Counted from the first letter of the stretch, positions 15,301 through 37,849 are shown. The stretch is 64,000 bases of DNA from Candidatus Bathyarchaeota archaeon (GCA_963806535.1 CAWDYC010000006.1:125545-189544), one strand, 5' to 3'. Numbers and translations are program-made. The notes: generated by a model from the sequence alone, not told the origin.

Positions 15301-15857
15301 CTACTGCAAGCCCTCAACCAACACTCACTCCAGCACCTACACCCGTACCAAACGCAATAACCATAACCACTTTGACGGATAGCGGCCAAAATGTATCTCT
15401 AACATTTCAGGGAGACATAACAAGTTCGACAATATCAAGCATCAGCATCACAACAGACGGATCTAACACAACAACAACGGTATCTTTAGCCATTGTCGCG
15501 CAAAGCAAGACTAATGGTTTTAATAATGTGACCATTCCAATTTCCGCCATTCCATATGGAACGACACCAACCGTTTATGTCAATAATGGAGTTGCTCAAA
15601 ATCAAGGGTACAGTCATGACTCCAAAAACTACTATATATGGTTCAAAACAGACTATTCTACATACGAATTATCAGTTGCTTTCGAAACACAACCTGCGCC
15701 CGCTAACTTTCCGATATGGGTGATATTAGCCATAGTCATCATTGTAGTCGTCTCTATTCTGGCAGTGTTTCTTCAAAAAACCTTTAAAACCAAAAACTTT
15801 AGGTTAGAAAAATATGAAAAAATAGCGAATAAATATTCTTGGTTTACAAAATCTTAA
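12384..15857 (+). CDS. Large cell-surface (S-layer/adhesin-like) glycoprotein with Ig/PKD-like repeats, PT linker and C-terminal TM anchor
   Basis: Signal peptide; repeats GTSPY.YQW x3, GG.G...YQW-type x4, LDHF.F x2; many N-x-S/T sequons; PT-rich linker; ...PANFPIW + TM + basic tail. Confidence 0.88.
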   Translation: MKKLQILIIIFLISLAVCTFVSIQSAKAAQSNITLNPNTGHIGDTITVSGTGFAILQPITIKFDGTTVPTSPPAQGGIDGSFSGASFTVPTTMIGSHTVSATDGTNSGNAQFTLTSTLTAPTISASPSTVDQTQTSTLSSTTVVTGTSPYTYQWIQKAPGTGSFSPISGATSSGYSFVTTSSTTIGSWSFELQVTDLASAIVTSNAVSVTVSAIPTVGIAPVGPLLMDAGQNQVFTATPGGGYGTLSYQWYSGSTPVSGANSLTYTYTASGASVSITCKVTDSAPTPITSTSNTVAITVSATPTVNITPVGPLSIDAGQAQTFTAAPSGGSGTIHFQWYLGGSAVSGASGSTYSFSRSVGSYSVTCKVTDSAYTPITSVDSNAVAVTVNSALVAPTASATPSTMNKGQTSTLASTAVTTGTSPYTYQWLSEAPGESSFNALGGATSSSYSFVTDSSTANGIWSFELKVTDVTGASITSNVATVSVTAALTVSVSPTSWSMDVGQSKTFIATASGGSGSYSSTGYQWYVGGSAQSGATSSTFSYSLGSIGSYLITVTVTDSLGSTSAPSSPASVVVSASPTVSIAPAGPITLDTGQIQVFTATYSGGSGSLSYQWSVDGNAVGSNSASYSYTATASSHSITCKVTDGASTPVTSSSNAVSITANSALLAPTVSASPNTINQGQTSILTSPSVTTGTSPYNYQWFEKVPSGTYTTIGSNSPSFSFVTSGTMVTGSWSFILQVKDASGNAVNSTAVSVTVNTSPLDHFIFASFGVQTAGTPFSITITAKNAFNNTLTNYSGTNALNVSIGTINPTITGNFINGVWTGSVTVTGAGSGVWLSASGSGMTGTSGSFTVNPGILDHFTFSSISDQSSGSPFNIAVTAQDAFNNTVKSYVGTPSLTCSAGSINPSIMTAFVGGAGSTLVTIASSGSSVTITATDGSHTGTSNSFTVTLAATSSPTPSPSPLPTPTPSTGPTASPQPTLTPAPTPVPNAITITTLTDSGQNVSLTFQGDITSSTISSISITTDGSNTTTTVSLAIVAQSKTNGFNNVTIPISAIPYGTTPTVYVNNGVAQNQGYSHDSKNYYIWFKTDYSTYELSVAFETQPAPANFPIWVILAIVIIVVVSILAVFLQKTFKTKNFRLEKYEKIANKYSWFTKS

Positions 15858-17503: not shown

Positions 17504-17977
17504 GTGATGCTTTCGGTTTTGGCAGTATTACCCGGTTTTCACCTACCATTGGTAAAAGCTAGTAATGAAACTACAAGCTTACAGGCGGCCGACGCTTCTA
17601 TCAATCAGGCGTTTACAAACGTCTTAGCGGCAGAAAAAGCAGGTGGCAACGTAACGCAGCTATTAGCAAAGCTAAATACTGCAGGAGCGCTTTTGGCGGA
17701 AGCTGAAAACGCTTATAACACGGGTAACTTGAATAATGTGATTTCAACGGCTGACAGTGCTCGATTAGTAGCCAATCAGGTTAATAGTGACGCGATAGGG
17801 CTTCGAAATTCAAGCATTACTCAATCCCAAAACAATCTACTATTTACCGTAGTTTTTTCTGTAATATCAGCAATTACTTTTGTTGTTGTAATGTTTTTAA
17901 TTTGGCGCCGATTTAAACGTGGATTTACCGAAAAATTGCTATCTTCAAAACCAAAGGTGGTGGAAAATGCAACTTAA
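17504..17977 (+). CDS. Membrane-anchored helical protein, paralog of the N-terminal part of 979-1569
   Basis: AF..VLAAEKAGGNVTQLLAKLN.A matches AY.AILKASNAGADTNQLIQQLNQA; possible CTG start at 17474. Confidence 0.75.
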   Translation: MMLSVLAVLPGFHLPLVKASNETTSLQAADASINQAFTNVLAAEKAGGNVTQLLAKLNTAGALLAEAENAYNTGNLNNVISTADSARLVANQVNSDAIGLRNSSITQSQNNLLFTVVFSVISAITFVVVMFLIWRRFKRGFTEKLLSSKPKVVENAT

Positions 17978-18560
17978 AGACTACAAAATTTTGTTTGTTA
18001 CCACTGTATTAATCGGTGTTATAATTCTTGCATCACCAACCATAGCGATTTTCATAAAAACCCCAGTTGGGGAACAGTTCTCTTCAATCTATATGCTTGG
18101 GCAAAATCATACATTTGATAATCTTCCGTTTAATGTCAAATCAGGCGTAGTTTATTCAGTCTATCTTGGAGTTACAAACTACTTGGAATCCTCTAATTAC
18201 TATACTTGCTCTGTCAAGTTAGCATCTCAAAATGATCGTCTCCCTGATCCGATACTTGGAACGCCAAGTTCATTGCCCACCTTGTATCAATACAAAACTT
18301 TTCTAGCTAATGGAGGAACATGGGAAGTGCCATTAACATTCGAAATAAATAATATCACTTTCTCAAACGAGACTTCGACGCTTTCTGACATAAGTATTAA
18401 TGGCTTAGATTATGCTGTTAATGAAATCTCAGTTTTCGATTCTAGCCGAGCCGGATATTATTACAACCTATTTATCGAATTGTCATTATACAATTCAACC
18501 TTGAACAGTCTAAATTATGATGGCAGATTTGTTACCTTAAATCTAAATGTTATTCAGTAA
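17967..18560 (+). CDS. DUF1616 C-terminal-like membrane protein
   Basis: TM followed by GEQFSSIYMLG; paralog of 597-1004; ATG at 17967 overlaps the end of the previous gene. Confidence 0.75.
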   Translation: MQLKDYKILFVTTVLIGVIILASPTIAIFIKTPVGEQFSSIYMLGQNHTFDNLPFNVKSGVVYSVYLGVTNYLESSNYYTCSVKLASQNDRLPDPILGTPSSLPTLYQYKTFLANGGTWEVPLTFEINNITFSNETSTLSDISINGLDYAVNEISVFDSSRAGYYYNLFIELSLYNSTLNSLNYDGRFVTLNLNVIQ

Positions 18561-18646: not shown

Positions 18647-20539
18647 ATGTTAGAAAAATTCAAAGAGCATAAGATTCTTATAGCGATAATAATTGTTGCA
18701 GGTTTTTTAATATTTTATGTTCTTGGTATTGCGACTAACCTGTTTGCGAATCCTGTGTTCTCCATGTTTTTTGTTATTAGCAATGATACAGCTCATGAAA
18801 TTGCATATTTAGCGGTGGTGGGAGCAGTCGCCGCAGTTATAATCGGTCTAATTCTTCTTAAAAAACAAAGGATCATAGAACCAAAGACAATGTACAAACC
18901 CGCCATTTTTAGTAATAGAGCAACTAACCAATTACCAGATAAACCTGTGGATTTTTTGGGAAAAAGTAAATTCGCTTTTGTATCGCTTTTGATAGGTTTA
19001 GCCCTCTTTTTCTACTCTTGGTATAAAACTTATCCAATATCACTGAAATATCCTGGCGACGCTGTTTTTTATCATATATCGCCGTTCTACTGGATCAGCA
19101 TTCCTGTAGTATTAGGCTCACTTTACTTGATAGGTGTCTTTTCAAAAAGTCAACCTGTCAAATGTGCCATAACTGTTGCAATTATATTATTTGTGTACTC
19201 TTTATCCTTCTTCTACTTTACAATGCCTACATCTGATTCATCTTACTTTAGAGGATTATCTCAAAATTTTATAAATACTCAAAGCTTGAATCCATCTCTA
19301 TTTATCCATGAATATTATCAATGGCCATCTTTTTTCTTAATAACAGATATTGCAACATCCGTAAGCGGTCTACCTCTTATTAGTTTCGAATTTTTTCTAT
19401 ACGCTTTAATCGGCTCCTTGATAGCTGGATCATTATATGTTTATGCGGCGAAGCTCAACAAAAATGGCGCAATCATAGCTGTACCTTCATTTTTCTTTGC
19501 AATGTTTTACTTCTTAAACTATCAAGCCGTGCCTTTTTCACTCGCACTTGCTTTACTTTTTGCAATCTTCATGTTGGAAACCAGAAAAAAAACTACACCT
19601 GTAATAGTAACTATTCTAATTTTGTTCTTCTGCCTTTCAATCGCGCATAGCTTTGTGGCTTTATTCTATATTCTGTATCTATTGTTCCGAAGCCTTGTAA
19701 GCAGAAGTAAACTTTATGCGGAAATCTGCTTGGTCGCTACGAACATTTTTGTAATAACACAATTCAGTTTAAGCTCTTACTGGATTGGCCTAAATATAAC
19801 AAACCTATTCCGCTTGCCAACAGAATATAGTTCAATAGTAAGTGCAACGTTGACTGCAACATCCACAGTTCCAACTCCTATAGATACACTGTCTCAAACA
19901 CTATCAAGAGCATCTACAATCATTATTCTTCTAATGTGTCTAATTGGTTTCGTTGTTCTTTTAATTAAACGAAAACTAAGAGCCGTAGATGGAGCCATTT
20001 TTCTTGCCGGACTAGCTTACACAGTCTTGGGCCTTGCTTTGTCCTCTTTAGGCTCAAGGGCTATATCAATCCTTTTTATTCCTTTATCTCTTGGAGCTAT
20101 GTATTTCCTTGGTACAAAACTAAGACCTTATATAATAGCCCTTTTTCTGATAGTGTTATTACTGTTTGTCGCCATCCCAATTCATACTTCATTTACTAGT
20201 TACCCAATAACATTTCAAACAAAAGATAATCTTACCACATCAAACTTTATGATTGAGAAGTACAACTGGACTCCATTTAGCACAGTAATCGCTGACTCTG
20301 GCATGAGATGGTACATGCTACCACAAATCCAGGGAAAGGCTGAAATCGACACTAACCTCCAACCTCGTTTTTCACTTACAAATATTACAAATTATGACTC
20401 TATCATCTACTCAATCGGTCTAGCAAATACCCTTCAAAGCAATGGTATTTCCCTTGAGAATAATTCACAAAGCATTATGCACAGTTACAGTTTGGTTTAC
20501 AACTCAGGTCAATCATATATAGCGATAAAAAGCAAATAA
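18647..20539 (+). CDS. Multi-pass membrane protein, GT-C / polymerase-like
   Basis: About 14 TMs; loop motifs DSSYFRG and YYQWPSFF; extracellular C-terminal domain ending VYNSG; located in a glycan locus. Confidence 0.6.
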   Translation: MLEKFKEHKILIAIIIVAGFLIFYVLGIATNLFANPVFSMFFVISNDTAHEIAYLAVVGAVAAVIIGLILLKKQRIIEPKTMYKPAIFSNRATNQLPDKPVDFLGKSKFAFVSLLIGLALFFYSWYKTYPISLKYPGDAVFYHISPFYWISIPVVLGSLYLIGVFSKSQPVKCAITVAIILFVYSLSFFYFTMPTSDSSYFRGLSQNFINTQSLNPSLFIHEYYQWPSFFLITDIATSVSGLPLISFEFFLYALIGSLIAGSLYVYAAKLNKNGAIIAVPSFFFAMFYFLNYQAVPFSLALALLFAIFMLETRKKTTPVIVTILILFFCLSIAHSFVALFYILYLLFRSLVSRSKLYAEICLVATNIFVITQFSLSSYWIGLNITNLFRLPTEYSSIVSATLTATSTVPTPIDTLSQTLSRASTIIILLMCLIGFVVLLIKRKLRAVDGAIFLAGLAYTVLGLALSSLGSRAISILFIPLSLGAMYFLGTKLRPYIIALFLIVLLLFVAIPIHTSFTSYPITFQTKDNLTTSNFMIEKYNWTPFSTVIADSGMRWYMLPQIQGKAEIDTNLQPRFSLTNITNYDSIIYSIGLANTLQSNGISLENNSQSIMHSYSLVYNSGQSYIAIKSK

Positions 20540-20626: not shown

Positions 20627-21490
20627 CTACCTTTTTGTTGCCAAAACGATGTATTGCGATCCACTTGAGCGTAGAATCGGATATCCCTTATCAGCGTACC
20701 CTTGAAGTTTTTGTTGTATTTTTATTGATGATTCTCCCGGAAATAAATTGTAACCGCATAAAGTAAATGGACCAAATCCCACACTTGTACTCTTTAGCAC
20801 TTTCATACCGCACTGAACCAGCGTCTGGTCGAATTTTTTGGGCGAGTGCTGACGATAGGGAGGAGCGTTTTTCCAACAATTCATCGATGTGAGTAAACCT
20901 GCTCTTTCAAGTTTATATCTAAGAAATCTTCGAAGCTCTGCTATTGCAGGGAAAGTTATCGGATCAAGTAGGGTTGTTGCTCTTAACGAGTTATCCACGG
21001 TTAAGATAGCATGTCCGTTTGGCGATAGTACCCTTACTATCTCTGAAAGTGCCTTCTTAAAGTCGTGAAGCCATGGGATAACTCCTAAAGCAACAATTAG
21101 ATCAAAAGATCTATTGGGGTAAGATAACTTATGTACATCTCCAGTATGAGCATTAATCCTGTTAAGATTCCCTGTTCTTTTTGCATTTTCAATTGTAAGA
21201 TTTACCATTGCCTGAGTATGGTCAATGGCTTCCACGGTAAATCCACGTTTTGCAAGAGCTACAGCAAGATAACCTGCCCCGGAGCCGATTTCAAGAACAC
21301 GAGTTGATTTTGGAAGCGATAGTCCATCTACGTAGCTTAGAGCTGCAGTCTGCCTTTGCTGATAAATGATCCCCTGAATATCATTGTCTTGGTAGGTATC
21401 CCTCCAGTAAGTAGCCTGGGTATCAAAAAGATCATCTACACGTCTCTGAGAAAGGTTGGTTTCGGCATTTAAAGGTGACATATACAACAT
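20627..21490 (-). CDS. Class I SAM-dependent methyltransferase
   Basis: VLEIGSGAG, SFDLIVALGV, EIVRVLSPNG. Confidence 0.9.
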   Translation of the reverse strand: MLYMSPLNAETNLSQRRVDDLFDTQATYWRDTYQDNDIQGIIYQQRQTAALSYVDGLSLPKSTRVLEIGSGAGYLAVALAKRGFTVEAIDHTQAMVNLTIENAKRTGNLNRINAHTGDVHKLSYPNRSFDLIVALGVIPWLHDFKKALSEIVRVLSPNGHAILTVDNSLRATTLLDPITFPAIAELRRFLRYKLERAGLLTSMNCWKNAPPYRQHSPKKFDQTLVQCGMKVLKSTSVGFGPFTLCGYNLFPGESSIKIQQKLQGYADKGYPILRSSGSQYIVLATKR

Positions 21491-21629
21491 CTTAACTTAA
21501 ATCTTCTCTACTTAACAAATAAACGATTCAAATTGTCTTTTATCTTTATTTATTAGAATATCAAGAATCATTGGAGAAAAATAGATAACTATGAGCTTCA
21601 CTTAATCGACCCAAATGACTTAACAATCG

Positions 21630-22457
21630 GTGAATAAAATGGTTAACGTTAAATCAAATTCCCAACATAGGTTGCATACCACAGATTATCTAAAATCAAT
21701 TGGCGTTTCAGAAATTATGCCCGCAACAAGTCCATTCGACCCAGGTTATGACCTCGTTACTTTAGCGAGTCATCTCGAGCAGAGCCATCATCTTATTTCA
21801 ATTCTAAAGGTTTCTATGGCGTGCTGGATGATAGCAAATGAAGATGTCAGTCGAAAAAAGATATCGGCCGCAAAAAAATATGGCGTGCCAACAACAACCG
21901 GTGGAGGACCTTTTGAGGTTGCCTATGTCCAAGGTAAATTAGATAAATATCTTGACTTAGTGGCTGATTTTGGCTTTACCCGAATCGAATGTGGAGAAGG
22001 TTTCACTGACATCTCTCTAAACGCTAAAGAAATTGTGAAAATGGCAAACGATAGAGGCTTAGAAGTTCAATTCGAACTTGGCAAAAAACATGAAGGCGCC
22101 TTTACAAACGACATTGTAGATGCATTGATAGATCAAGGAAAAAAATGGCTTGAAGCTGGAGCTCTCCAACTAGTTGTTGAGGCAAGGGAAAGTGCAAAAG
22201 GAGTTGGGCTATTTGACAACGAAGGAAATCTTAACATTCAATTCGCAGACAGATTTGCCAATGCTTTTGGCCACGGAACTGTTATGTTCGAAGCACCAAA
22301 CAAGCCAAGTCAATTCGCCCTATTAGACCACTTCGGCAGAGATGTTCATCTTTGCAATGTTCGAATCGAAGAGTTATTGCGAGTTGAAATTTACCGAAGG
22401 GGCCTGCACTCAGATGCTTTTAACAAAGAAAATCTCCGTCCGAGACTGCCACAATAA
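21630..22457 (+). CDS. comA: Phosphosulfolactate synthase (ComA family)
   Basis: GGGPFE, IECGEG, ELGKK, VEARESAKGVG, FEAPNK..Q, LCNV..EELLRVE..RRGLHSD; adjacent to comB. Confidence 0.88.
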   Translation: MNKMVNVKSNSQHRLHTTDYLKSIGVSEIMPATSPFDPGYDLVTLASHLEQSHHLISILKVSMACWMIANEDVSRKKISAAKKYGVPTTTGGGPFEVAYVQGKLDKYLDLVADFGFTRIECGEGFTDISLNAKEIVKMANDRGLEVQFELGKKHEGAFTNDIVDALIDQGKKWLEAGALQLVVEARESAKGVGLFDNEGNLNIQFADRFANAFGHGTVMFEAPNKPSQFALLDHFGRDVHLCNVRIEELLRVEIYRRGLHSDAFNKENLRPRLPQ

Positions 22458-22474
22458 AACAGGAGAGAAAACAG

Positions 22475-23188
22475 TTGCCGTCAAAAGTAGTTGCTATCGA
22501 TTGCATAACCGAATGTTCAAAGCAATATGATAAAGAAACAGCAGTTATAGTCATTGATGTAATTCGGTCTACGACGGTGGCAGCAACAATTGTGGAGTCT
22601 GGAAGAAGATGTTTTTTTGCACCTTCAACTGAAGGAGCTATTCTTCTAAAAAAACGTCTCCAAAGGCCATTAATGGTAGGCGAAGTTGGCGGCAACATGC
22701 CCTATGGTTTTGATTTTAAAAACAGCCCAGTAGATGTTAAAAAATATCCTGATAAATCCAGACCAGTAATTATTGTATCTACATCTGGAATACCGCTACT
22801 TTATTCCTTGAGAAATTGCGGTTCACTTTACGTTGGGTGCTTGCGAAATTATACCGCGACTTGCAATTACCTTGCTAGACGTTATAGTCGCGTGAAATTG
22901 TTTGGAGCGCCCACCCGTGGCGAATTTCGTGAGGAAGATAAGTTGTGCTGTTCCTGGATTGCAGCAAGTCTATTGGAAGCCGGTTTCACTTGCGAAGATG
23001 CGAAAACCCTGCAAATTGTGAATAGTTGGAAGGATAAGTCAGTTACCGTATGTGGTGAAGGGAATAGTGCAAAATATCTTATAGAAACTAGGCAAAAAAG
23101 AGACCTTAATTTCATACTCAAACATGTAAACGACTTTAATTACGCTCTCACTATTGAGGGCGATGAGATTGTTAAGATACCAACTTAG
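22475..23188 (+). CDS. comB: 2-phosphosulfolactate phosphatase (ComB family)
   Basis: VIVIDVIRSTT, GEVGG...GFDFKNSP, STSG, GCLRN, FREEDKLC. Confidence 0.9.
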   Translation: MPSKVVAIDCITECSKQYDKETAVIVIDVIRSTTVAATIVESGRRCFFAPSTEGAILLKKRLQRPLMVGEVGGNMPYGFDFKNSPVDVKKYPDKSRPVIIVSTSGIPLLYSLRNCGSLYVGCLRNYTATCNYLARRYSRVKLFGAPTRGEFREEDKLCCSWIAASLLEAGFTCEDAKTLQIVNSWKDKSVTVCGEGNSAKYLIETRQKRDLNFILKHVNDFNYALTIEGDEIVKIPT

Positions 23189-23193
23189 ACTAG

Positions 23194-24435
23194 GTGACGA
23201 AAGCGTCTAAATTCACTATATCGGACACAAGAGTTCCTGTTGTTGTTTTGTACACTTATCATTACGGTCAATTAGGCCTTCTACGCACATTTGGGAGACT
23301 TGGAATTGAAGTGCACGGCGTAGATCCACATACAACTTCACCTGGCTTATTTTCAAAATATTGTCGAAAGAAATTTCTATGGGATGTTGACGGCAAAGAT
23401 CCTCAATCGTCAGTTCAATATTTACTAGCAGTTGCAAAAAAGATTGGGAAGCGTTCTATTCTGATACACACTACAGATAGTGGTTCAAGCTGGCTTGCGG
23501 AAAATGCCAACTCTTTGAGTGAAGGCTTTATCTTTCCAAAACTTCCAGCGCAGCTTGTTTATGCGCTAGCCGACAAAAAGGAGATGTATTTTTTAGCGAA
23601 AAAGTTTGGGATTCCGACTCCTGACGCATGTTTTCCCATTTCAATGGATGAAGTTCAAACCTTTTCAGAAGAAGCAACTTTTCCATTAGTCATGAAGGAA
23701 ATGTATCGGAGTAGGTCCCCACGCTTTGGCAAAAGAATGTTTATAGCAAACACTAAAACCCAATTACTGAACCTATACAAACTTCATGAAGACTTCTCTG
23801 AGCCCAGCTTTATGCTTCAGGAGTATATTCCTGGCGGAGACGACTCTATTTGGATGTTTAACGGTTATTTTAATGAGAAATCAGAATGCTTGTTTGGCAT
23901 AACAGGCAGGAAAATACGTCAATCTCCAATCCACAAAGGAGTCACTTCTTTAGGTATTTGCCTTCACAATTCTGATGTCGATCAATTAACAAAACATTTC
24001 ATGAAGAGCATAGGTTACAAAGGTATACTTGATATTGGATACAGATACGACTCTCGAGATGGAGAATACAAAGTTCTCGACGTTAATCCTCGCGTGGGAT
24101 CGAGTTTCCGTCTATTTGTTGCGTCAAATGGATTAGACGTTGCCAGGGCTGCATATTTAGACCTAACAGGTCAGCCAGTTCCGAAAAGTGAAATTATTGA
24201 GGGAAGAAAGTGGTTTGTTGAAGACAGGGATTTAATTTCCAGTATTAATTATCGTTTTGAAAAGAGCCTAACGTTTAGGCAATGGATGACTTCATATCGA
24301 GGCGTCCGAGAGAGCGCCTGGTTTGCATGGGATGATCTTCTTCCCTTCTTTGTCCAAAACTTAAGGTTTTCAAGAAAATTCATTTCAAGATCCGACAAAA
24401 GCACGTTAAACCCCTATAGAATTATCCCTAATTAA
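23194..24435 (+). CDS. ATP-grasp carboxylate-amine ligase (D-aspartate-ligase-like family)
   Basis: LRTFGRLGI, SKYC, DKKEMY..AKKFGIPTP, FPLVMK, LQEYIPGGD, GRKIRQ.P, D.RDGEYKVLDVNPR. Confidence 0.85.
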   Translation: MTKASKFTISDTRVPVVVLYTYHYGQLGLLRTFGRLGIEVHGVDPHTTSPGLFSKYCRKKFLWDVDGKDPQSSVQYLLAVAKKIGKRSILIHTTDSGSSWLAENANSLSEGFIFPKLPAQLVYALADKKEMYFLAKKFGIPTPDACFPISMDEVQTFSEEATFPLVMKEMYRSRSPRFGKRMFIANTKTQLLNLYKLHEDFSEPSFMLQEYIPGGDDSIWMFNGYFNEKSECLFGITGRKIRQSPIHKGVTSLGICLHNSDVDQLTKHFMKSIGYKGILDIGYRYDSRDGEYKVLDVNPRVGSSFRLFVASNGLDVARAAYLDLTGQPVPKSEIIEGRKWFVEDRDLISSINYRFEKSLTFRQWMTSYRGVRESAWFAWDDLLPFFVQNLRFSRKFISRSDKSTLNPYRIIPN

Positions 24436-24689
24436 GGCGTTTTTCTGGCTCTAAACGATTGATTATAATCTGCAGTTTTAAGTTTTATTAAACTTGCATT
24501 AAATCTGCTTCTATAAAGGGAATGCTTAAAGACTGAGAGTTAATTTGGATGTATGCTTAAATGACTAATAATATCCTTATATGTTCATCAATTTGAGTGA
24601 TTAACTGTGACCTCTAAAACGAAAAGAACCTTTGAGAAAGCTGCTACTTGGACTTGGCTCGAGCTAAACAGGTTATATAATGAAATTTC

Positions 24690-25323
24690 TTGGTGATTAA
24701 AATGGTATTTGCTTTAAAGACTATATTAGCTGTTGGAGCGCACCCAGATGACATTGAACTAGGCTGTGGCGGGACTATATGCAAATCTATCCAAGCAGAT
24801 TCAAAAGTTGTTGCTTTGTATATGACAAAGGGCGGGAAAACATTTGATACTAATGTGCGAATGAATGAAAGCATAAAAGCTATGAATATACTGGGGGTCA
24901 AAGATATTTATTTTGAAAATTTCCCTGACACTGAAATTCCCGATTCTTATCAAGCCATAAACTGCTTAGAAGAATATTTTACGAAGTACCAGCCAGACAT
25001 CGTACTTACGCATTCGGTCAATGATACTCATCAAGATCATAGGCGTGTAGGGTGGCTGGCTATGTCAGCGTTCCGGAACGTTGCAAAGATTCTTGCCTTC
25101 GAAACGCCTAGAGTGAAGGCCTGCAAACTTTTTGCCAACTTTTTTTGTTAACATTACAGGATTTGTTGATAAGAAATGGGAAGCATTGCGCTGCCATGTT
25201 TCTCAAAACGAAAAGCGATACCTCGCATATGAATCAACTGTCAATCTAGCGTTTTTTAGAGGAAGCCAAGTTGGAGTTCAATCAGCTGAGGCTTTTGAAA
25301 TTATCAAATATTTAGATGCATAA
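24690..25323 (+). pseudogene. PIG-L/LmbE-family N-deacetylase, frameshifted (ORFs 24690-25151 and 25132-25323)
   Basis: GAHPDDIELGCGG, DTHQDH; C-terminal KKWEALRCHVSQ...AEAF lies in the +1 frame; removing one base near 25116-25120 restores ETPRV.PANFLPTFFVNI. Confidence 0.85.
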
Positions 25324-26353
25324 TTTTGTACATGCCAAAACACTGGAGTTATATAGATTGGATGAAAAGTTTAAGGTCGCTGTCATTGGATTAGGCAAGA
25401 TGGGCCTATTGCACGCAAGTATATTGAGCACTCTACCAAACGTTGAACTGGTTGCCCTCTGTGATAAGAGTTCGTTGATCAGAAGATTCGGTCGAAAACT
25501 TCTCAAAGGGATACAGGTGGTTGATGATTCAGCGAAGATTTTAGATTTTAAACCTGACATCGTTTATGTAACAACCCCAATTCCATCCCATTATTCAGTA
25601 ATATCTGGTTTATGCTCCAATGGAGAGATGCCTCACTTGTTTGTTGAGAAAACGCTCTCTTCAAAATATGATGATTCGGTTAAACTAATCGAACTTGCTC
25701 AGAGATTTAAGAAAGCAAATATGGTTGGATACATGAAAAGGTTCTCAGTTACATTCAATAAAGCCAAAGAATTACTGGAGCAAGAGGCAATTGGTCAAAT
25801 AATTTCTTTTGATGCTTACGCTTTTTCGTCAGATTTCTTTGGGCTCGAAGAGAGCAAACAAGCTTCATCAAGAGGTGGGGTCATAAGTGACTTGGGCTCT
25901 CACGCGATAGATATGGCTTTATGGCTATTCAAGGAATTTGAACTCAAATCTGACTTAGAAAACAAGGTAACTAAGGATGTAGCACATTTTAATGTAGAAA
26001 ATTCCAAGGGAATTAAAGGAAAGTTTGAGATGTCATGGTCAAAAGAAGGCTATCATATGCCTGAAATTGGAGTATTAATCAGCGGAGATACAGGTAAAAT
26101 CAAGGTTAATGATGATTTGGTGGAATTGCAATCAAATTCCGGATCCACAAAGGCGTGGCATAGACATGATCTCCAAGATAATGTGGGCTTTCTGTTAGGA
26201 GATGCAGAATACTATCGAGAGGACGAATACTTCGTCAATTCAATAACTAAAAAATCTCAAATTGAATCGGATTTTGTTTCCGCCTCCAAGGTTGATTATA
26301 TAATAGAGAAAGTATCAGACAGAGCTGAAAACATTGCAGAAAAATCAAGATAG
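25316..26353 (+). CDS. Gfo/Idh/MocA NAD-dependent oxidoreductase
   Basis: VAVIGLGKMG, VTTPIPSH, FVEK, VGYMKRF, GGVISDLGSHAID. Confidence 0.92.
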   Translation: MHNFVHAKTLELYRLDEKFKVAVIGLGKMGLLHASILSTLPNVELVALCDKSSLIRRFGRKLLKGIQVVDDSAKILDFKPDIVYVTTPIPSHYSVISGLCSNGEMPHLFVEKTLSSKYDDSVKLIELAQRFKKANMVGYMKRFSVTFNKAKELLEQEAIGQIISFDAYAFSSDFFGLEESKQASSRGGVISDLGSHAIDMALWLFKEFELKSDLENKVTKDVAHFNVENSKGIKGKFEMSWSKEGYHMPEIGVLISGDTGKIKVNDDLVELQSNSGSTKAWHRHDLQDNVGFLLGDAEYYREDEYFVNSITKKSQIESDFVSASKVDYIIEKVSDRAENIAEKSR

Positions 26354-27242
26354 ACTATTACTTGTCGGAGATAACCCGTTCCATGGTATTAGTCATCTCT
26401 CCCAAGAAAGGGTTAGAAATCGGGGCAGACCGATAAATGACCCACACTTTGCCGCGAATTTGGTTGAAACTTCTATTCATAGCGGTGCTAACGGCTTCAT
26501 GTTTTCAGTTAGCGACACCACTTTATCAATACTAAACATACTAACTAAAGACACGACTATCGATCAAGTCAATCTCTATCCCCTAGTTCCTTACGCTTAC
26601 GAATATGTCAGACTTGCTACTCACGCAGGCGGAATACCTGGGCTAGGAAAAAGAATGGCTAAGCAAATTGTAAAATCACGAAATGCATCAGCAGCATTTT
26701 TTGGCTTAAAAGGAATCCTGACAGTAAACGGCATGGACTTAATGAAAGCCTATTTGGCATACGAAATTTCCAGAATAAAGACATCGGTCCATAAGAAAGG
26801 AATTGTGCGCTCAGTACTACTTCATGAAGTAGTGACTGATATGTGTCTAGCTTTAAACATAGATTCACTCTTCAAGTCCTACATTGAATTTTTGCAAAGT
26901 AGAAAAATTAAGCCAGGCTTTGAAACAAGAAATTTCCCCTTCCTTTTGAAAAAATTGGGTGAATGGGAGATTAATTCAGACGATATTCTGATCGCGGCTC
27001 CATTTAATAAAATTGGTTTTTACATGAATCCATCTAAAAATGAATGTGAAGTAGCCCTCTCAACTCTCCATAAACCCAACGTTATAGCTATGAGTATTTT
27101 AGCAGCAGGCTATCTTAAGCCCTCAGAGGCTATAGAATATATTGATAACCTCCCAAACATCAATTCCATAGTTGTAGGTATTTCAAGCGGGCAACAAGCG
27201 AGTTCAATATCGCAATTCCTTGTAAATAGCAGGCATTCATAG
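26334..27242 (+). CDS. Conserved hypothetical protein (possible aldo-keto-reductase-like TIM barrel)
   Basis: GDNPFHGISH, APFNKIGFYMNPS, IAMSILAAGYL, SIVVGISS; overlaps the Gfo gene. Confidence 0.6.
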   Translation: MQKNQDRLLLVGDNPFHGISHLSQERVRNRGRPINDPHFAANLVETSIHSGANGFMFSVSDTTLSILNILTKDTTIDQVNLYPLVPYAYEYVRLATHAGGIPGLGKRMAKQIVKSRNASAAFFGLKGILTVNGMDLMKAYLAYEISRIKTSVHKKGIVRSVLLHEVVTDMCLALNIDSLFKSYIEFLQSRKIKPGFETRNFPFLLKKLGEWEINSDDILIAAPFNKIGFYMNPSKNECEVALSTLHKPNVIAMSILAAGYLKPSEAIEYIDNLPNINSIVVGISSGQQASSISQFLVNSRHS

Positions 27243-27317: not shown

Positions 27318-28550
27318 ATGGATAGAACTGCGCTGTGTATGCTTGCTCCAGAATTCTTACCCGTGTGGGGTGGCACAGGCTCATACACAGTTGAACTAAT
27401 CAAATCATTGCCAAAAAACGTAGACATCGATGTTATCACACTAAAACGAAGCATTGATGGAATGGCTAACGGTGCTAATAATCAAAGCATCATTGATTCA
27501 ATAATAAAACGACCGATAAATGTTCACTATCTAAGTGAGTCTCATGAAACATTTTTTTATAATTTCGCATTCCAAAGTGCTTGCTTCTTTAGGCTTCCAC
27601 TCATAAACAAAAAAGCTAATTTTGACTTGATTCACTCCCACTTAGTCCATATGCCGGACGTTTATCTGCAAATATTCAGGCAGGTCAATGTACCCACAGT
27701 TGTTACTTTGCATGGAACAATACAAATGCTTAGAGATCACGCTATAATAGCACGCGAACTATTTCATGATCTTGAGGCTGGGGAAAAATCTATCCTCCGC
27801 TTTTATCCAATAATTAGGCAACTGCAAGAGTTCTACGCAAAGCGCATAACGCGATTTATCGCTGTCTCTAAAGTGACCAAAGAGTTGGCTGTAAAACATT
27901 TAGGTGTTGATCCAAGCAAAATCAGCCTGGTATATAATGGAGTTGACACGGATCTATTTCATATTCCAGATGAAGATGAATTAAACATCAAGAACTCGAG
28001 ACCTTCAATTGTCTATGTAGGCCGGATTATTTCCAAAAAAGGGATTGATGTTCTTATCAAATCGATGCCCGAGGTTCTCAAGTTTTGCCCCAAAGCTCGT
28101 TTTATTTTTGTGGGCGGCGGCAACATATCCTTTTATAAAGAAATGATCAAAAGCAAAGGAATATCTAAGGACAATTATTTGTTCACAGGTCACATGGGCT
28201 ATTCAGAACGCTCAAAAATAATGCGAGAGGCAACCATCTTCGTAAATCCTTCCTTCTTCGAGAACTGTTCAATAAGTATACTTGAGGCAATGAGTAGCGG
28301 CTGCGCGGTTGTTGCTAGCAATGTGGGCGGAAATCCTGAACTGATACATTCTGGGCAGAATGGTTTACTTGTACGTCCGTTTGATCATGATGCTTTTGCA
28401 AAATCAATAGTTTCATTATTACAAGACGAGTCAGAAAACAGGTTAATAGGAAAAACAGCGCGAATGACAGTAGAAGAATCTTTCTCTTCGAAAAAATGTG
28501 CAGAAGAAACATACAAAGTATACAAGAAAACCATTAACTCGCATCAATGA
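27318..28550 (+). CDS. Glycosyltransferase family 4
   Basis: YNGVD, YVGRI..KKG, PSFFENCSISILEAMSSG, SNVGGNPE. Confidence 0.92.
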   Translation: MDRTALCMLAPEFLPVWGGTGSYTVELIKSLPKNVDIDVITLKRSIDGMANGANNQSIIDSIIKRPINVHYLSESHETFFYNFAFQSACFFRLPLINKKANFDLIHSHLVHMPDVYLQIFRQVNVPTVVTLHGTIQMLRDHAIIARELFHDLEAGEKSILRFYPIIRQLQEFYAKRITRFIAVSKVTKELAVKHLGVDPSKISLVYNGVDTDLFHIPDEDELNIKNSRPSIVYVGRIISKKGIDVLIKSMPEVLKFCPKARFIFVGGGNISFYKEMIKSKGISKDNYLFTGHMGYSERSKIMREATIFVNPSFFENCSISILEAMSSGCAVVASNVGGNPELIHSGQNGLLVRPFDHDAFAKSIVSLLQDESENRLIGKTARMTVEESFSSKKCAEETYKVYKKTINSHQ

Positions 28551-28608
28551 AAACCGATCACTAAAAAATATGCGCCTTCCTTAAACTCAAATCTAAAATT
28601 TTTCATCT

Positions 28609-29628
28609 TTGAAACCAAAACTTAGGAAAAGTCAAATAATGGCGATAATTAGCGAAACCCCTGAAATAAGCGTTATCTTGGCAACTAGGGGCGACAAAAC
28701 AGATTTATTAAAGAACTGTTTAGATTCATTGAAAAAACAAAAGTTTAAAGATTTCGAAATCATTATTGTGGCAAAAAAATTTCCCCAACAATTTCAAAGT
28801 GTTTTAGAAAGCGAGCAAATTAAATTTGTTGAGGAAAAAGGAACAACACTGGGTGCAGCTCGAAATTTAGGAGTAAATAATGCTACAGGGAAATTGGTTT
28901 CTTTTATAGACGATGACGCAGAAGCATCGCCTAATTGGCTAGAAAAAATAAGTTTGACCTTCTCTCAATTTCCATCAATTAGCTGCCTAGGCGGACCACA
29001 CTTTACACTTCAAGACAAATCCAAAAACGACCCCTTAAATTATGTCGAGGGTCTTTTTTTTGAAGGTCGTTCCCAAATAGTCTATTTTGACAAGTCAGCA
29101 ATTGGAAAAATTGCGGGTTGCAATGTAACTTATAAGAAATCGGTGTTTCAAGAATTAGGTTGTCTAAATGAGAATTTAAGAACTTGTGAAGATTGGGATC
29201 TTAATGGCAGATTATTAGAAAAAGGGTACACTCTCCGTTTTGATCCGGAGATTTGGGTTTGGCATCGCAGGCAAGGGTTAAAGCATGCTTTCAAAGGTAG
29301 TTCGAGAAGTGCACCGTTTTTCTTATCTTGGAAAACGCTTAAACTCGCAAGATACGAGCCTATCATTGCTTCGTTTTATGCTTCAAATTTACTCTTTATT
29401 TTACTTGTTATTTCTTTGTTTATTTCTCCATATCTCACTGTATTTTTATTCCTTGCATCTTTATTTGCATACGTTATCTTCAACGCGGTAAGAACTCATA
29501 CTTATAATCGTAAAATCATATATTTTCCACTGGTAGTTTTACTTACAGTTGCAAGAATTCTAGGATTCTATTTTGGCTTAGTTAAAAACGCAGCCTTTAG
29601 GTTACGTATTCTGATTTCACGTAAGTAG
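28609..29628 (+). CDS. Glycosyltransferase family 2 with C-terminal TMs
   Basis: GAARNLG, FIDDD, GCNV, EDWDL. Confidence 0.9.
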   Translation: MKPKLRKSQIMAIISETPEISVILATRGDKTDLLKNCLDSLKKQKFKDFEIIIVAKKFPQQFQSVLESEQIKFVEEKGTTLGAARNLGVNNATGKLVSFIDDDAEASPNWLEKISLTFSQFPSISCLGGPHFTLQDKSKNDPLNYVEGLFFEGRSQIVYFDKSAIGKIAGCNVTYKKSVFQELGCLNENLRTCEDWDLNGRLLEKGYTLRFDPEIWVWHRRQGLKHAFKGSSRSAPFFLSWKTLKLARYEPIIASFYASNLLFILLVISLFISPYLTVFLFLASLFAYVIFNAVRTHTYNRKIIYFPLVVLLTVARILGFYFGLVKNAAFRLRILISRK

Positions 29629-29747
29629 CAAATGCAACAATTCAGGCAGCAAATTCCACAGCAAAAATCTGCACAAAAAATTACGCCATTAAGCAAATAC
29701 ATTATGTTCATTTAATAATCAAAAATCGCCACAAGGTAAAATTTTAG

Positions 29748-30920
29748 ATGAAAGTATGTTTCGTTACTAACATCTTCCCACCAGACTCTTTGGGCGGTCC
29801 CGGAGAAGTTGTATATAACCTTCAAAAATTTATGATTAAACAGGGAATAGAAGCTTACGTATTTACATGTGGCACAAACGACCGAAGGTACGCCAAAACT
29901 ATAAGGACTTTCGGGGGTAAACGGCTTTTCCCTATTGTGAGCCCACTTTATTTCAAGAAAATTAAGAAAAATCACTTTGATATTATTAATTTCCATAGCG
30001 AAAGCGGTATGGGCATTGCTCCATTGATGTATTTTAATAGAACTTCTAAAATCATTACAACTTTGCATAGTGAAGTTCTGACTGAAAGCAATTCAACAAA
30101 AGCCGTTATGATCGCTGATTCAGTCATAGAGAACCTTAGTCAAGAAGAATTAATAACAAAACACCTGCTTGCTCTAATCAAAATCACCGGCATTTACATG
30201 GATATTGCAGTATCAAAACGAATCATCGCCGTATCAGAAAAAACTAAACAAGATTTCCTGAGACAACATCAAATTCCTCAAGAAAAAATATCAGTAATCC
30301 ACAACGGTGTTGACTCCCAGAGATTCAACCCAAAAGTTTCAGGAGAAGCTATCCGAAAAACTTACTCTTTAGGCAGTTCTCCGCTTATTCTAACAGTCAG
30401 CGGTAATATATTTATAAAAGGCACAGTTTTTGCTCTTTACGCTTTAGCCGAAGTTGCAAAAACTTTTCCTCAAGTGAAGCTTATTGTCCTTGGAGTTAGC
30501 GACAAGAATAAAGAGCGCCTCTACCCGATATTAAAGAATCTTGGAATTCAAAAAAATGTTTCTATTATAGGGTCGATTCCTAATTTTGAAATGCCTTTTT
30601 ACTATTCATCTTCTGATATAGTTCTATTTCCTTCTCTTTCAGAGAATTTTCCAATTGCTCTGTTGGAAGCCATGTCTAGTGCAAAGCCAGTCATCGCATC
30701 AAGGGTTGGGGGGATACCTGAAATTGTGAGCAACGGCAATAACGGAATTTTTGTTAGCCCAGGTAATATTGAAGAAATAGCCAAATCTCTCTTATATCTT
30801 CTTGAAAATCCATTAATCGGAAGAAAAATGGGTGAAATGGGGCGAAAAATAGTTCAAGAAAAATTTGATTGGGAAAAAGTAGGGAGAGCCTATTTGAAAG
30901 AATTCGAAAGTGTAATGTGA
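29748..30920 (+). CDS. Glycosyltransferase family 4
   Basis: HNGVD, PSLSENFPIALLEAM, SRVGGIPE. Confidence 0.92.
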   Translation: MKVCFVTNIFPPDSLGGPGEVVYNLQKFMIKQGIEAYVFTCGTNDRRYAKTIRTFGGKRLFPIVSPLYFKKIKKNHFDIINFHSESGMGIAPLMYFNRTSKIITTLHSEVLTESNSTKAVMIADSVIENLSQEELITKHLLALIKITGIYMDIAVSKRIIAVSEKTKQDFLRQHQIPQEKISVIHNGVDSQRFNPKVSGEAIRKTYSLGSSPLILTVSGNIFIKGTVFALYALAEVAKTFPQVKLIVLGVSDKNKERLYPILKNLGIQKNVSIIGSIPNFEMPFYYSSSDIVLFPSLSENFPIALLEAMSSAKPVIASRVGGIPEIVSNGNNGIFVSPGNIEEIAKSLLYLLENPLIGRKMGEMGRKIVQEKFDWEKVGRAYLKEFESVM

Positions 30921-32062
30921 GTATCTCCTTAGGTGAGAATTTGAATATATTATGTTTCTTTCCTGGAATGAGCATGCAAGTAAACGATAATGCTCATATG
31001 CTTATCAGACTCAAGGAAAGAGGCCTTAAATTAGTAATTGTAACTGGTAAGTCGATGGCTTTGAAAGGGGAAGGGAATCTTCCAATTTATGAAGACATGG
31101 ATGGCATTCCTATCCATAGACTTTATGAAAATCCTCAAGAAATGTTTCTTTTTCCAGGAAGAAGATTAAACGAGGTCTTGGAAATAGCTGAGGATCTTAA
31201 GCCTGATATAATACTTTGTGAGCCAGAGCTGAATATTAGGTTAGCACTTTTGGTTCAAAAACATCTGAAAAAACCCATAGTTCTCTTAGTTGAAAGTGCA
31301 GGACGACTTTTGTCAGGCGAAGTACATAGCACTCTTAAAATGAAAACTGTCATGTCTCTGTTTGGAATACCGCATGGCCCAAAATTCTGGTCCTGGTTAT
31401 GCGAAAAAGCCGACGTTTTGATTACAAGTAGTCCCAAAGATAACAAAATTCTCGATCAATTGTCGAAACACAATAAACCGGTATTTTATCTTCCATGGCC
31501 TTCACATATACCTGAAGGTTTCGAAAATGCCGTCAAGCGTGAAAATGGTGTTGGTCTGTATATCGGGTCACTCTATCCATTCAAAAACACACAAGAATTT
31601 GAAAAAACCTTACCGCTAATTTTGGAAAAAACGAAAACTAAACAATTTGTTGTGGTTGGGTCGGGCCCACATGCTTCTGTTGTTAGAAAAATCCAAAAAC
31701 AATACGGTCAATCAATACGTTACATAAGTCATTTGTCAAGAACTGAGTCGCTAAGATTGATGTCAGAGAGTTTCTACGCCTACACACCAATAAAAATAGG
31801 TGGATGGGGCTTCATTGGCGATTGTTGGAGTACAAAAACTCCTATTATAATGACTCATAATGATGACGATTATGTGCTTAACAATGTAAATGCTTTGGTT
31901 GCGGAAAATGAGAATGATTTTATTGAAAATATTAACCGCCTTTACAACGATAGTGAATTATATCAGAAGCTTCAGACGAATGGGTATGAAGAATACAGAA
32001 AGAGAAATGCAGCGGTCGTTGGCGACGCATTATATGATATTTTAGGGAAGGGATTACGATAA
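30869..32062 (+). CDS. Divergent GT4-like (GT-B) glycosyltransferase
   Basis: YIGSL.PFKN, VVGSGP, GWGFIGDCWS in place of the usual E-x7-E; true start probably near 30917-30940. Confidence 0.7.
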   Translation: MGKSRESLFERIRKCNVSISLGENLNILCFFPGMSMQVNDNAHMLIRLKERGLKLVIVTGKSMALKGEGNLPIYEDMDGIPIHRLYENPQEMFLFPGRRLNEVLEIAEDLKPDIILCEPELNIRLALLVQKHLKKPIVLLVESAGRLLSGEVHSTLKMKTVMSLFGIPHGPKFWSWLCEKADVLITSSPKDNKILDQLSKHNKPVFYLPWPSHIPEGFENAVKRENGVGLYIGSLYPFKNTQEFEKTLPLILEKTKTKQFVVVGSGPHASVVRKIQKQYGQSIRYISHLSRTESLRLMSESFYAYTPIKIGGWGFIGDCWSTKTPIIMTHNDDDYVLNNVNALVAENENDFIENINRLYNDSELYQKLQTNGYEEYRKRNAAVVGDALYDILGKGLR

Positions 32063-32155
32063 TAATATTTAGGGGTTTTGTATTTTTGTTGAGCAATAAC
32101 ACAGAAGTCTTAAATTACAATATCGTTTATATTAATCCTTACGATATCCGAAGGC

Positions 32156-33124: not shown

Positions 33125-33264
33125 GTTTACTTTAAAATCAAAATGTAAAATCATAGTTAACCTGCCGGCTCAAATCTGACTAAACCATTATTTTCAATTT
33201 TTCCAATCATCGAGAAAAATGTTTAGTTCAATTAGTAATCCATTAAAAAGAAGTTGAATTAGAC

Positions 33265-34356: not shown

Positions 34357-34435
34357 AAATAACTTGTTAAAAATACGCATGATGTAGAATCGGATTCCTC
34401 AGGCAATATTAAAGATCGGGCTTTATCGTGATTTT

Positions 34436-35302: not shown

Positions 35303-35391
35303 CGTTGAAAACTTAAGAAATAAAAAACTAATTGTTGGCTGAGGAAAATTTGGAGTAAAATGGAATAAATAAAAATTGGGCTGATTGCAAG

Positions 35392-36300: not shown

Positions 36301-36382
36301 TAGTCAAAACCCGTTTATCAGAAAATTGCGGACGAAAAGCGATTATCCCCCATTAATTTGAGTGAGTAGGAGACTTTCCTAA

Positions 36383-37555: not shown

Positions 37556-37849
37556 TAAAGCTATAGCAGAAAACGTAAATGAAATAGATTTTCAATAAAT
37601 TGAAAATAAGGATTAAGTCATGGCTATCTTAACGAATTGATATGAAAATCTTAAATCCCATTTTAAATCTTGCCAATTCAATAAAAAATTAAATTGTATT
37701 TGAGCATCAGTCTTTAGATGCAGTTCCTAAAAAAAATCAAGTAATTTTGGTCTTTCAGACAATTGGGTCTCAAATTTGAGCATCAAGTTTGAAGAGTCTT
37801 AGAGATATATTCTCGCAAATTATTCAAAATCTTTGCCGAGGCCAAAAAG

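Follow-up and report, generated by a model that had tools for sequence, protein, structure and literature searches.

Background

ComA and ComB serve coenzyme M biosynthesis in methanogens. In Bacillus subtilis, homologues encoded by yitC and yitD make sulfolactate, which stays free and accumulates in the spores, and we know of no ligase or methyltransferase involved in that system. Sulfur-bearing anionic glycans are known to arise by way of sulfoquinovose or by O-sulfation dependent on 3'-phosphoadenosine 5'-phosphosulfate (PAPS). Among ATP-grasp enzymes, D-aspartate ligases of the Aslfm type, which are defined by a peptidoglycan context and an adjacent aspartate racemase, join a small anionic acid to an amino group of a precursor of the cell envelope. 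In the HS:2 capsule of Campylobacter jejuni, the TupA-like ATP-grasp ligase Cj1438C amidates capsular glucuronate (PMC11800379). Here we describe a stretch of 64,000 nucleotides from a Candidatus Bathyarchaeota archaeon (GCA_963806535.1, CAWDYC010000006.1:125545-189544; hereafter the window), in which genes for a ComA-family synthase and a ComB-family phosphatase are closely followed by a gene for a predicted ATP-grasp ligase, inside a surface-glycan locus. Comparison with related loci shows that these genes are conserved together, and makes it modestly probable that they form a horizontally mobile cassette that decorates a surface glycan or exopolysaccharide with sulfolactyl groups.

Organization and conservation of the cassette

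The genes on which the analysis centres are the following.

20627-21490, minus strand: class I S-adenosylmethionine-dependent methyltransferase (PF08241, 71 bits)
21630-22457, plus strand: ComA-family phosphosulfolactate synthase of the cassette subtype (PF02679, 168.5 bits; cut-off 25.2)
22475-23188, plus strand: ComB-family 2-phosphosulfolactate phosphatase (PF04029, 114.5 bits; cut-off 26.4)
23194-24435, plus strand: predicted ATP-grasp carboxylate-amine ligase (weak Pfam and NCBIfam matches; fold from a structural model)

An open reading frame (ORF) listing and profile searches bear out the identities and coordinates that a preliminary description of the window had given for comA, comB, the ligase gene and their neighbours, as well as the spacing reported there: 17 bp separate the ComA stop (22457) from the TTG start codon of ComB (22475), and 5 bp separate the ComB stop (23188) from the GTG start codon of the ligase (23194), both starts being the earliest start codons available after the stop of the previous gene. 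The methyltransferase gene is divergent from ComA, with 139 bp between them.

Conservation of this arrangement was surveyed from the ligase side. A profile search with an alignment of 27 ligase homologues was run against genome contigs, one genome per species; of 509 pattern matches, 435 were confirmed, and the best 80 loci were kept, to which all locus counts below refer. Neighbouring genes were found by tblastn with the window proteins. Both ComA and ComB are encoded in 69 of the 80 ligase loci, in 68 of them no more than 3 kb from the ligase. The 11 exceptions comprise two loci cut by a contig end (L005, L036), one with ComA only (L024) and eight with neither gene. This linkage of ComA, ComB and ligase is far beyond chance, and supports the view that the three act as one conserved functional unit. 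The preliminary description had suggested that the ComA subtype might recur together with ComB, the ligase and glycosyltransferase clusters, and it does so: at least 56 of the 69 cassette loci contain glycan genes, which likewise upholds the placement of the cassette in polysaccharide-biosynthesis loci. Identity to the window protein is 57-88% for ComA (70 loci; median 71%), 36-80% for ComB (median 43%) and 48-75% for the ligase (median 52%).

The loci carry the labels of nine phyla: Bathyarchaeota, Methanomicrobiales (one contig), Ignavibacteriota, Bacteroidota, Chlorobiota, Acidobacteriota, Chloroflexota, Pseudomonadota and Gemmatimonadota. Without exception, the most closely related loci come from metagenome-assembled genomes (MAGs) labelled Bathyarchaeia or Bathyarchaeota, but the cassette loci are mostly Acidobacteriota, and 58 of the 69 are bacterial by label; thus the route is not specifically archaeal, as had been supposed. 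The 57-88% identity of ComA across domains suggests that the cassette has been transferred as a unit and is under strong constraint. In particular, ComA of the archaeal window is 76-81% identical to that of loci labelled Ignavibacteriota, Bacteroidota and Methanomicrobiales (L014-L019), far above what is usual for vertical inter-domain descent, which indicates inter-domain transfer of the cassette. In a quick maximum-likelihood tree of 78 ligase ORFs of at least 330 amino acids (shorter ones were dropped), the archaeal ligases nest among those of Ignavibacteriota, Bacteroidota, Chlorobiota and Chloroflexota; because the root of this tree is arbitrary, no direction of transfer is claimed.

Polysaccharide genes around the cassette

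To describe the surroundings of the cassette, 1338 locus ORFs were clustered by blastp and single linkage and one representative was annotated per family, Pfam being used for 41 recurrent families and NCBIfam for 17, so that family labels are extrapolated from representatives; spurious antisense ORFs are present in high-GC genomes (family f10). In 28 loci the labelled families numbered one or none, and for these an extra Pfam scan covered 116 unlabelled ORFs of at least 200 amino acids within 6 kb, four ORFs of more than 1000 amino acids being omitted. At least two labelled glycan families are present in 41 of the 69 cassette loci and one in a further 9. Among loci with no labelled family, 6 have a clear glycan Pfam match (L051, L054, L057, L065, L066, L075), 2 have a DUF354 gene immediately past the ligase (L048, L059) and 1 is ambiguous (L053); in the last 10, no glycan gene was found (L014, L016, L018, L019, L020, L030, L032, L044, L052, L056).

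The context is clearest in 19 Terriglobia loci, in which the cassette lies co-directionally between a priming transferase and a polytopic, flippase-like membrane protein (family f6) with 8-9 predicted hydrophobic segments. Upstream are genes for a Wza-type exporter, Wzz, an AAA/PEGA ATPase, a tyrosine-kinase-like ATPase, a NusG-like protein, UDP-glucose dehydrogenase, an epimerase and the priming transferase, a polyprenyl glycosylphosphotransferase (TIGR03025, 417.6 bits; cut-off 295.6); then come the methyltransferase, ComA, ComB, the ligase and the flippase-like protein; and downstream of these follow an APH-like kinase, an FkbM methyltransferase, Wzy_C, a beta-helix protein, a carbohydrate esterase family 4 (CE4) deacetylase, a family 4 glycosyltransferase (GT4) and WecG. 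The bacterial loci thus have the marks of Wzx/Wzy-type exopolysaccharide synthesis, namely TIGR03025 above its cut-off and Pfam matches to Poly_export, Wzz and Wzy_C; all models specific to XrtA/PEP-CTERM systems stay under cut-off there. Ignavibacteriota and Bacteroidota loci additionally contain genes for AMP-dependent ligases, FemAB-like GNATs (found in 11 ligase loci in all), CE4 deacetylases, GT2 glycosyltransferases and GH9 proteins. When 12 bacterial neighbour families, including f6 and the APH-like, LarA, SbnB-like, CE4 and FemAB-like families, were compared with the window by tblastn (E ≤ 1e-3), none matched; therefore bacterial and archaeal loci have only the cassette in common.

ComA and ComB

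The Pfam match of the window ComA is full-length (profile positions 14-243 of 243), but its score against the archaeal ComA equivalog TIGR03849 (arch_ComA) is 171.5 bits, short of the cut-off of 280, and by its sequence the protein is of a subtype distinct from the NCBI archaeal ComA equivalog. Solved structures are matched with E-values of 7e-35 (1qwg; query residues 47-266), 6e-35 (24fo) and 4e-15 (1u83), and K153 is aligned with K137 of 1qwg, which we take to be the catalytic residue. The N-terminal motif TSPFDPGY, put forward earlier as the mark of a subtype, is a real signature: of 59 cassette ComAs called as ORFs, 51 have SPFDPGY without a mismatch, and conservation among the 59 reaches 95% or more at 98 of 275 positions. 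ComB matches 1vr0 (E 3e-12) and reaches no NCBIfam equivalog cut-off, the best being NF002057 (77 bits against 235).

The ATP-grasp ligase

The ligase has 4093 homologues at E ≤ 1e-5, which bear automatic labels such as 'D-aspartate ligase' (many, from JGI), 'ATP-grasp carboligase' and 'carboxylate--amine ligase'. Its own Pfam matches are weak (CPSase_L_D2, E 1e-5), as are those to NCBIfam, and a sequence search of the PDB returned marginal biotin-carboxylase matches only (E 0.03). No curated D-aspartate ligase model is among the Pfam and NCBIfam matches of the window protein, and the TupA-like ATP-grasp Pfam family is not among its matches at E ≤ 0.001; as a name for this enzyme, the 'D-aspartate ligase' mentioned in the preliminary description is only an automatic label on homologues. 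The AlphaFold model (pLDDT 83.8) is that of a three-domain ATP-grasp fold: Foldseek places PurK, biotin carboxylase and the L-amino-acid ligases RizA and BL00235 at the top with TM-scores of about 0.6, and the matches listed, out of at least 500 in the PDB at E ≤ 0.001, are all ATP-grasp enzymes or carboxylases containing such a domain. K168, QEYI at 209-212, D296, N298, P299 and R300 are invariant in all 27 aligned sequences; these are presumably the ATP- and Mg2+-binding positions of the ATP-grasp superfamily.

Methyltransferase and LarA-like partners

The methyltransferase reaches no NCBIfam model, and in the PDB it matches generic class I methyltransferases only. A homologue is encoded in 48 of the 80 loci, no more than 5 kb from the ligase in 46, and in bacterial loci it usually stands directly upstream of ComA on the same strand, whereas it is divergent in the window. 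Gene fusions tell more. Sorted by blastp against the cassette proteins, 55 long ligase homologues (fusion proteins within P0247-P0295) have the following partners: a methyltransferase domain of the cassette type, 36-44% identical to the window protein and in both domain orders, in 38, one of which is a ligase-methyltransferase-LarA triple fusion; a weaker methyltransferase match (22-24% identical) in 3; a LarA-like domain only in 1, which with the triple fusion makes two proteins with this domain (P0273, P0288); a FemAB-like GNAT domain in 4; a second, tandem ligase copy in 4; an AMP-binding and carrier-protein module in 2 (P0281, P0291); and other partners in 3. Because of these fusions, the methyltransferase and the LarA-type enzyme are considered to be functionally tied to the ligase. 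The methyltransferase is an integral, often fused, member of the cassette; its divergence in the window was described correctly at first, but it is no bystander.

A separate observation concerns P0294, in which the ligase homologue is fused to a methyltransferase and a sulfotransferase domain.

A LarA-like family, with the N-terminal domain of lactate racemase, is encoded inside or beside the cassette in six loci (L015, L030, L035, L054, L070, L074). Its best curated matches are models of nickel-dependent malate racemase (174 and 168 bits, under cut-off), and sulfolactate is the sulfonate analogue of malate. The presence of LarA beside the ligase and fused to it fits a free 2-hydroxy acid as ligase substrate, and this branch of the LarA family may be a sulfolactate racemase.

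Ligase loci without ComA and ComB

Loci that lack ComA and ComB offer a further view of the ligase. Two Bathyarchaeia loci, L012 (9992-17833) and L013 (9117-18260), encode ligases 62-63% identical to that of the window, followed by a gene of the octopine/nopaline-dehydrogenase family and by another methyltransferase gene. A gene for an Asp/Glu-racemase-like protein comes after these two in L012; in L013 its place is just before the ligase. Both loci have PIG-L and Gfo genes further downstream, followed by an ORF for a TIM-barrel protein in L013 and by a DUF362 protein gene in L012. The neighbours of these two ligases are possibly an alternative 'acid module' for the same enzyme. In four bacterial loci (L045, L072, L076, L080), ComA and ComB are replaced by a gene similar to SbnB and ornithine cyclodeaminase (267 bits against 327, under cut-off) directly upstream of the ligase, at about 8800-9965, and FemAB-like GNAT genes are near the ligase in L072 and L080. 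That another small-acid or amine module is found where ComA and ComB are missing is as expected if the neighbours supply the small substrate of the ligase. Indeed, the ligase keeps its place in glycan loci while the adjoining small-molecule module changes.

A separate specificity clade of ligases without ComA and ComB was considered and rejected: on the ligase tree, loss of ComA and ComB requires 9 changes, and 58-60 of 500 label shuffles gave values as low. The scatter of these ligases over the tree suggests that partner swaps are recent and that ligase clades do not predict the partner module.

The glycan locus of the window

On the evidence of its genes, the whole stretch is a large glycan locus, in which the cassette is followed by these features.

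24690-25323 (ORFs 24690-25151 and 25132-25323), plus strand: PIG-L family de-N-acetylase, frameshifted (PF02585, 95.8 bits, N-terminal part)
25316-26353, plus strand: Gfo/Idh/MocA NAD(P) oxidoreductase, candidate sugar dehydrogenase (PF01408, PF22725)
26334-27242, plus strand: conserved hypothetical protein of 302 amino acids, predicted TIM barrel (AlphaFold and Foldseek; no sequence-profile match)
27318-38938, plus strand: nine GT4 and GT2 glycosyltransferase genes and one unassigned ORF (Pfam Glycos_transf_1, Glyco_transf_4, Glycos_transf_2)
50211-51440, plus strand: DegT/DnrJ/EryC1 sugar aminotransferase (PF01041, 388.5 bits)
55535-57136, plus strand: Wzx-type polysaccharide flippase of the same glycan locus (PF13440, PF01943, 98-99 bits)

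Also downstream are genes for two APH-type kinases, several methyltransferases and one hexapeptide transferase, as assigned by Pfam. No sulfoquinovose synthase or sulfotransferase Pfam match was found among the 53 window ORFs scanned.

The PIG-L gene was present downstream of the ligase as first described, but this copy is frameshifted. The PF02585 match (cut-off 28.2 bits) covers residues 13-127 of the first ORF; the frame is split at about residue 143, and comparison with L010, the closest relative, places a single inserted base near 25115. Homologues of about 209 amino acids are intact in L003 and L010, and the L003 protein hits the window in two frames by tblastn; the frameshift reflects either a pseudogene or an assembly error. 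PIG-L matches are present in 12 of 14 Bathyarchaeia loci (not in L009 or L064), including L012 and L013, which lack ComA and ComB; 11 of the 12 begin within about 400 bp after the ligase, and that of L012 lies 3 kb downstream. L048 has a 37% identical PIG-L match 1.7 kb past the ligase. Among bacterial loci, 15 encode members of CE4 deacetylase families, and the cassette is complete in 14 of these. That a deacetylase accompanies the ligase fits, without proving it, a de-N-acetylated sugar as the source of the amine.

The Gfo/Idh/MocA gene, found among the 80 loci only in those of Bathyarchaeia, has as its best NCBIfam matches inositol 2-dehydrogenase (81 bits) and UDP-GlcNAc 3-dehydrogenase (77 bits), both far under cut-off. 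The next ORF (26334-27242) lies in the range covered by the preliminary description, which passed over it. It has no Pfam, NCBIfam or PDB sequence match, and its 2266 homologues, so far as those listed are named, are called 'hypothetical protein', with a few JGI labels of 'DUF486 family'. Its AlphaFold model (pLDDT 81.5) has 4exa as best Foldseek match (TMq 0.58, E 3e-6), and the ESM Atlas returned unnamed clusters only, an aldo-keto-reductase cluster at 0.75 being a weak lead; the protein is predicted to be a TIM barrel, distantly similar to aldo-keto reductases. A homologue is encoded downstream of Gfo in six Bathyarchaeia loci.

Proposed pathway and alternative explanations

These gene arrangements are best read as serving the sulfolactyl decoration of a surface glycan. 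As expected from family membership, ComA would add sulfite to phosphoenolpyruvate (PEP), giving phosphosulfolactate, from which ComB would remove the phosphate to give 3-sulfolactate; where a LarA homologue is present, it would invert C2 of this product. The ATP-grasp ligase would then activate the sole carboxylate of sulfolactate as an acyl phosphate and join the sulfolactyl group to a free sugar amine, either of the nascent glycan or of a nucleotide- or lipid-linked precursor, to give an N-(3-sulfolactyl) residue. The amine would most likely be freed by a de-N-acetylase, PIG-L in Bathyarchaeia and CE4 in many bacterial loci, and the methyltransferase, to judge from the gene fusions, may modify the same moiety, for example at the 2-hydroxyl. 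The outcome would be a permanently anionic decoration in which a sulfonate is held on the surface glycan by a C-S bond. The idea that sulfolactate decorates a glycan, already put forward from the sequence of the window alone, survives the comparative tests and gains from the fusions and from LarA, but its chemical details are still predictions.

Several observations weigh against this reading. The acceptor, the type of bond and the site of methylation are all inferred. Since ComA and ComB are both under their NCBIfam equivalog cut-offs, function of the methanogen type is not guaranteed for either. The ligase is without a characterised close relative, its structural matches are generic and give no functional lead, and loss of ComA and ComB is scattered over its tree. 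PIG-L is frameshifted in the window and absent from nearly all bacterial cassette loci, and DegT, which the preliminary description had offered as another source of the amino sugar, lies 26 kb from the ligase and has matches in only 7 of the 80 loci. Of the 10 cassette loci in which no glycan gene was found, four are on short contigs (7-12 kb), and in L056 the cassette lies among the housekeeping genes nusA, infB and truB. The taxon names are MAG labels, which are open to binning errors, and the single Methanomicrobiales locus is an 8.9-kb contig.

Some of these observations would be accommodated by other explanations, to which we assign smaller probabilities. Sulfolactate might be made as proposed and attached differently, either as an ester, between its 2-hydroxyl and a uronic-acid carboxylate activated by the ligase, or as an amide to an amino-acid or peptide side branch. 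This is a minority possibility to be taken seriously. ATP-grasp enzymes such as VanA can make esters with 2-hydroxy acids; the FemAB-like GNATs, fused to the ligase in 4 of the 55 long homologues, could install an amino-acid branch; UDP-glucose dehydrogenase belongs to the Terriglobia loci; and the characterised capsule enzyme Cj1438C activates the sugar's own carboxylate (PMC11800379). Nevertheless, neither the window nor the Bathyarchaeia loci contain genes for UDP-glucose dehydrogenase or FemAB-like proteins, the pairing of deacetylase and ligase in archaea fits a sugar amine better, and in a surface polymer an ester bond would be labile. A rather unlikely explanation is that the cassette makes a small soluble sulfonate, such as a methylated sulfolactyl amide serving as osmolyte, signal or storage compound, and that it is co-regulation or island structure, not common chemistry, that places it in glycan loci. 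The four cassette genes are self-sufficient on paper for such a product, free sulfolactate is a known constituent of Bacillus spores, and besides L056 there are cassettes flanked by unrelated genes (L032, L044) among those without a glycan gene. However, a soluble product does not explain why the great majority of cassette loci contain glycan genes, with the cassette set co-directionally between priming transferase and flippase-like genes in the 19 Terriglobia loci, nor does the cassette have, as a conserved companion, a gene for a dedicated exporter or for the supply of an amine.

It is less likely still that this ComA/ComB subtype supplies the ligase with another 2-hydroxy acid, similar to lactate, glycerate or malate. 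The equivalog scores, the fact that the LarA neighbour resembles malate racemases more than anything else, and the promiscuity of ComB phosphatases towards 2-phospho acids would be in keeping with this; but the match of ComA to solved structures extends with conserved blocks over about 220 residues, we know of no other reaction for the ComA fold, and the extreme conservation of the subtype argues for demanding, specific chemistry. Finally, the family names, together with the one locus of 80 labelled Methanomicrobiales, might suggest that ComA and ComB have a part in making coenzyme M and so are signs of methane or alkane metabolism. The probability of this is very slight, and coenzyme M synthesis by this cassette is effectively excluded: no Pfam match of the ComC type (Ldh_2) or the ComDE type (thiamine-pyrophosphate-dependent decarboxylase) was found among the 53 window ORFs scanned, in agreement with the absence of comC and comDE reported earlier; ComA is under the archaeal equivalog cut-off; and the cassette occurs mostly in Acidobacteriota, Ignavibacteriota, Bacteroidota, Chloroflexota, Pseudomonadota and Gemmatimonadota. 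Because these are by label non-methanogens, ComA and ComB are here no marker of coenzyme M or methane metabolism, as the preliminary description had anticipated.

Returning to sulfolactyl decoration, the observations can be combined into a fuller picture, which we offer tentatively, as quite possible but short of probable. A cassette of four or five genes (methyltransferase, ComA, ComB and ligase, with or without a nickel-dependent sulfolactate racemase), spread horizontally over at least nine bacterial and archaeal phyla and common in soil Acidobacteriota and peat Bathyarchaeia, would equip exopolysaccharides with a methylated 3-sulfolactyl amide. Sulfur-bearing anionic glycans would then have a third route of formation, unrecognised until now, by way of sulfite on PEP and a C-S bond, and the ligase would be a modular 'acid-capping' enzyme whose neighbours decide the acid.

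Further features of the window

Within the glycan locus, APH-family phosphotransferase genes are present at 39965-41215 and 52862-54004, and an unrelated APH-like family is encoded downstream of the cassette in 18 Terriglobia loci; APH genes in these loci suggest phosphorylated sugar or decoration intermediates. Directly upstream of the methyltransferase, ORF 18647-20539 encodes a protein of 630 amino acids, for which about 14 hydrophobic segments are predicted. It matches no Pfam family, has 40-52% identical matches in six Bathyarchaeia loci and may be a glycosyltransferase or polymerase of the membrane. DUF1616, a family of archaeal membrane proteins, is matched in pieces at 1624-2250, 17504-17977 and 17919-18560, one ORF covering profile positions 4-119 and another, at a distance of 16 kb, positions 153-272; the overlapping pair 17504-17977 and 17919-18560 is found again in Bathyarchaeia loci. 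Upstream of the glycan locus (5371-8803) are genes for a DUF4350 protein, a MoxR-type AAA ATPase (AAA_3, 180 bits) and a DUF58 protein. The locus is flanked by genes for large, probable surface proteins of 1157 amino acids (12384-15857) and more than 848 amino acids (61456-63999), which have weak PKD-like and Big_3 matches and are possible targets of glycosylation. Next to the locus, on the minus strand (59241-59966), is the gene for a small protein that contains the catalytic domain of adenylate/guanylate cyclases (PF00211, E 2e-8). No Rfam RNA family was found in the window, and a scan for sigma-70 promoters and terminators, a sigma-70 model being ill-suited to archaea, gave background levels.

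Implications

In a literature search that left out most subscription journals and supplements, the word 'sulfolactyl' did not occur, and neither ComA nor ComB was connected by any paper with an ATP-grasp ligase or with polysaccharides; passages of PMC4641369, PMC7324677, PMC11796062 and 10.64898/2026.04.28.721461 contain nothing bearing on the cassette. We rate the cassette as a glycan-decoration module of known enzyme families that uses a new building block. If this is correct, the carbon-bonded sulfonate acyl group would be a new chemical class of surface-glycan decoration, and sulfite and sulfolactate would have a new fate in soils and peat, in the abundant but poorly understood Terriglobia, Ignavibacteria and Bathyarchaeia. 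It would also provide a testable function for a large unannotated family of 'carboxylate-amine ligases', its fused methyltransferases and a branch of the LarA family, and an example of a glycan-decoration module transferred between domains. Accordingly, caution would be called for when comA and comB in metagenomes, those containing Bathyarchaeia included, are taken to indicate coenzyme M or methane metabolism.

Comparison with known systems

With the ComA and ComB proteins of methanogen coenzyme M biosynthesis (M. jannaschii ComA, 1qwg; ComB family, 1vr0 and 2yyv), the cassette proteins have in common the families, the adjacent gene order and the expected chemistry. Unlike the methanogen system, the window is without a ComC or ComDE match, its ComA and ComB are under the equivalog cut-offs, and in the cassette the pair is coupled to a ligase and a methyltransferase in glycan loci, mostly of non-methanogens. 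YitC and YitD of B. subtilis are ComA and ComB homologues that likewise stand outside coenzyme M metabolism, but YitD (structure 1u83) is more distant from the window ComA than is the methanogen enzyme.

D-aspartate ligases of the Aslfm type (COG3919) are likewise ATP-grasp enzymes, and the variant loci L012 and L013 even have an Asp/Glu-racemase-like neighbour. In the window, by contrast, there is neither a peptidoglycan context nor a racemase; the neighbours are ComA, ComB, PIG-L and glycosyltransferases, the acid supplied would be a hydroxy-sulfonate rather than an amino acid, and the ligase matched no curated model or structure of that family. Cj1438C is the nearest precedent for an ATP-grasp enzyme that decorates a polysaccharide: it too is encoded in a polysaccharide locus, and it adds a non-sugar decoration through an amide bond (PMC11800379). 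It differs in belonging to another ATP-grasp subfamily, the window ligase having no TupA-like Pfam match, and in its polarity, which is the opposite: Cj1438C activates a carboxylate of the sugar and adds an amine, whereas here the small molecule would bear the carboxylate. As in sulfoquinovose formation and O-sulfation, the result would be a negatively charged sulfur group on a surface glycan; unlike in either of these, sulfite added to PEP would bring in the sulfur, and an acyl group would carry it onto the glycan.

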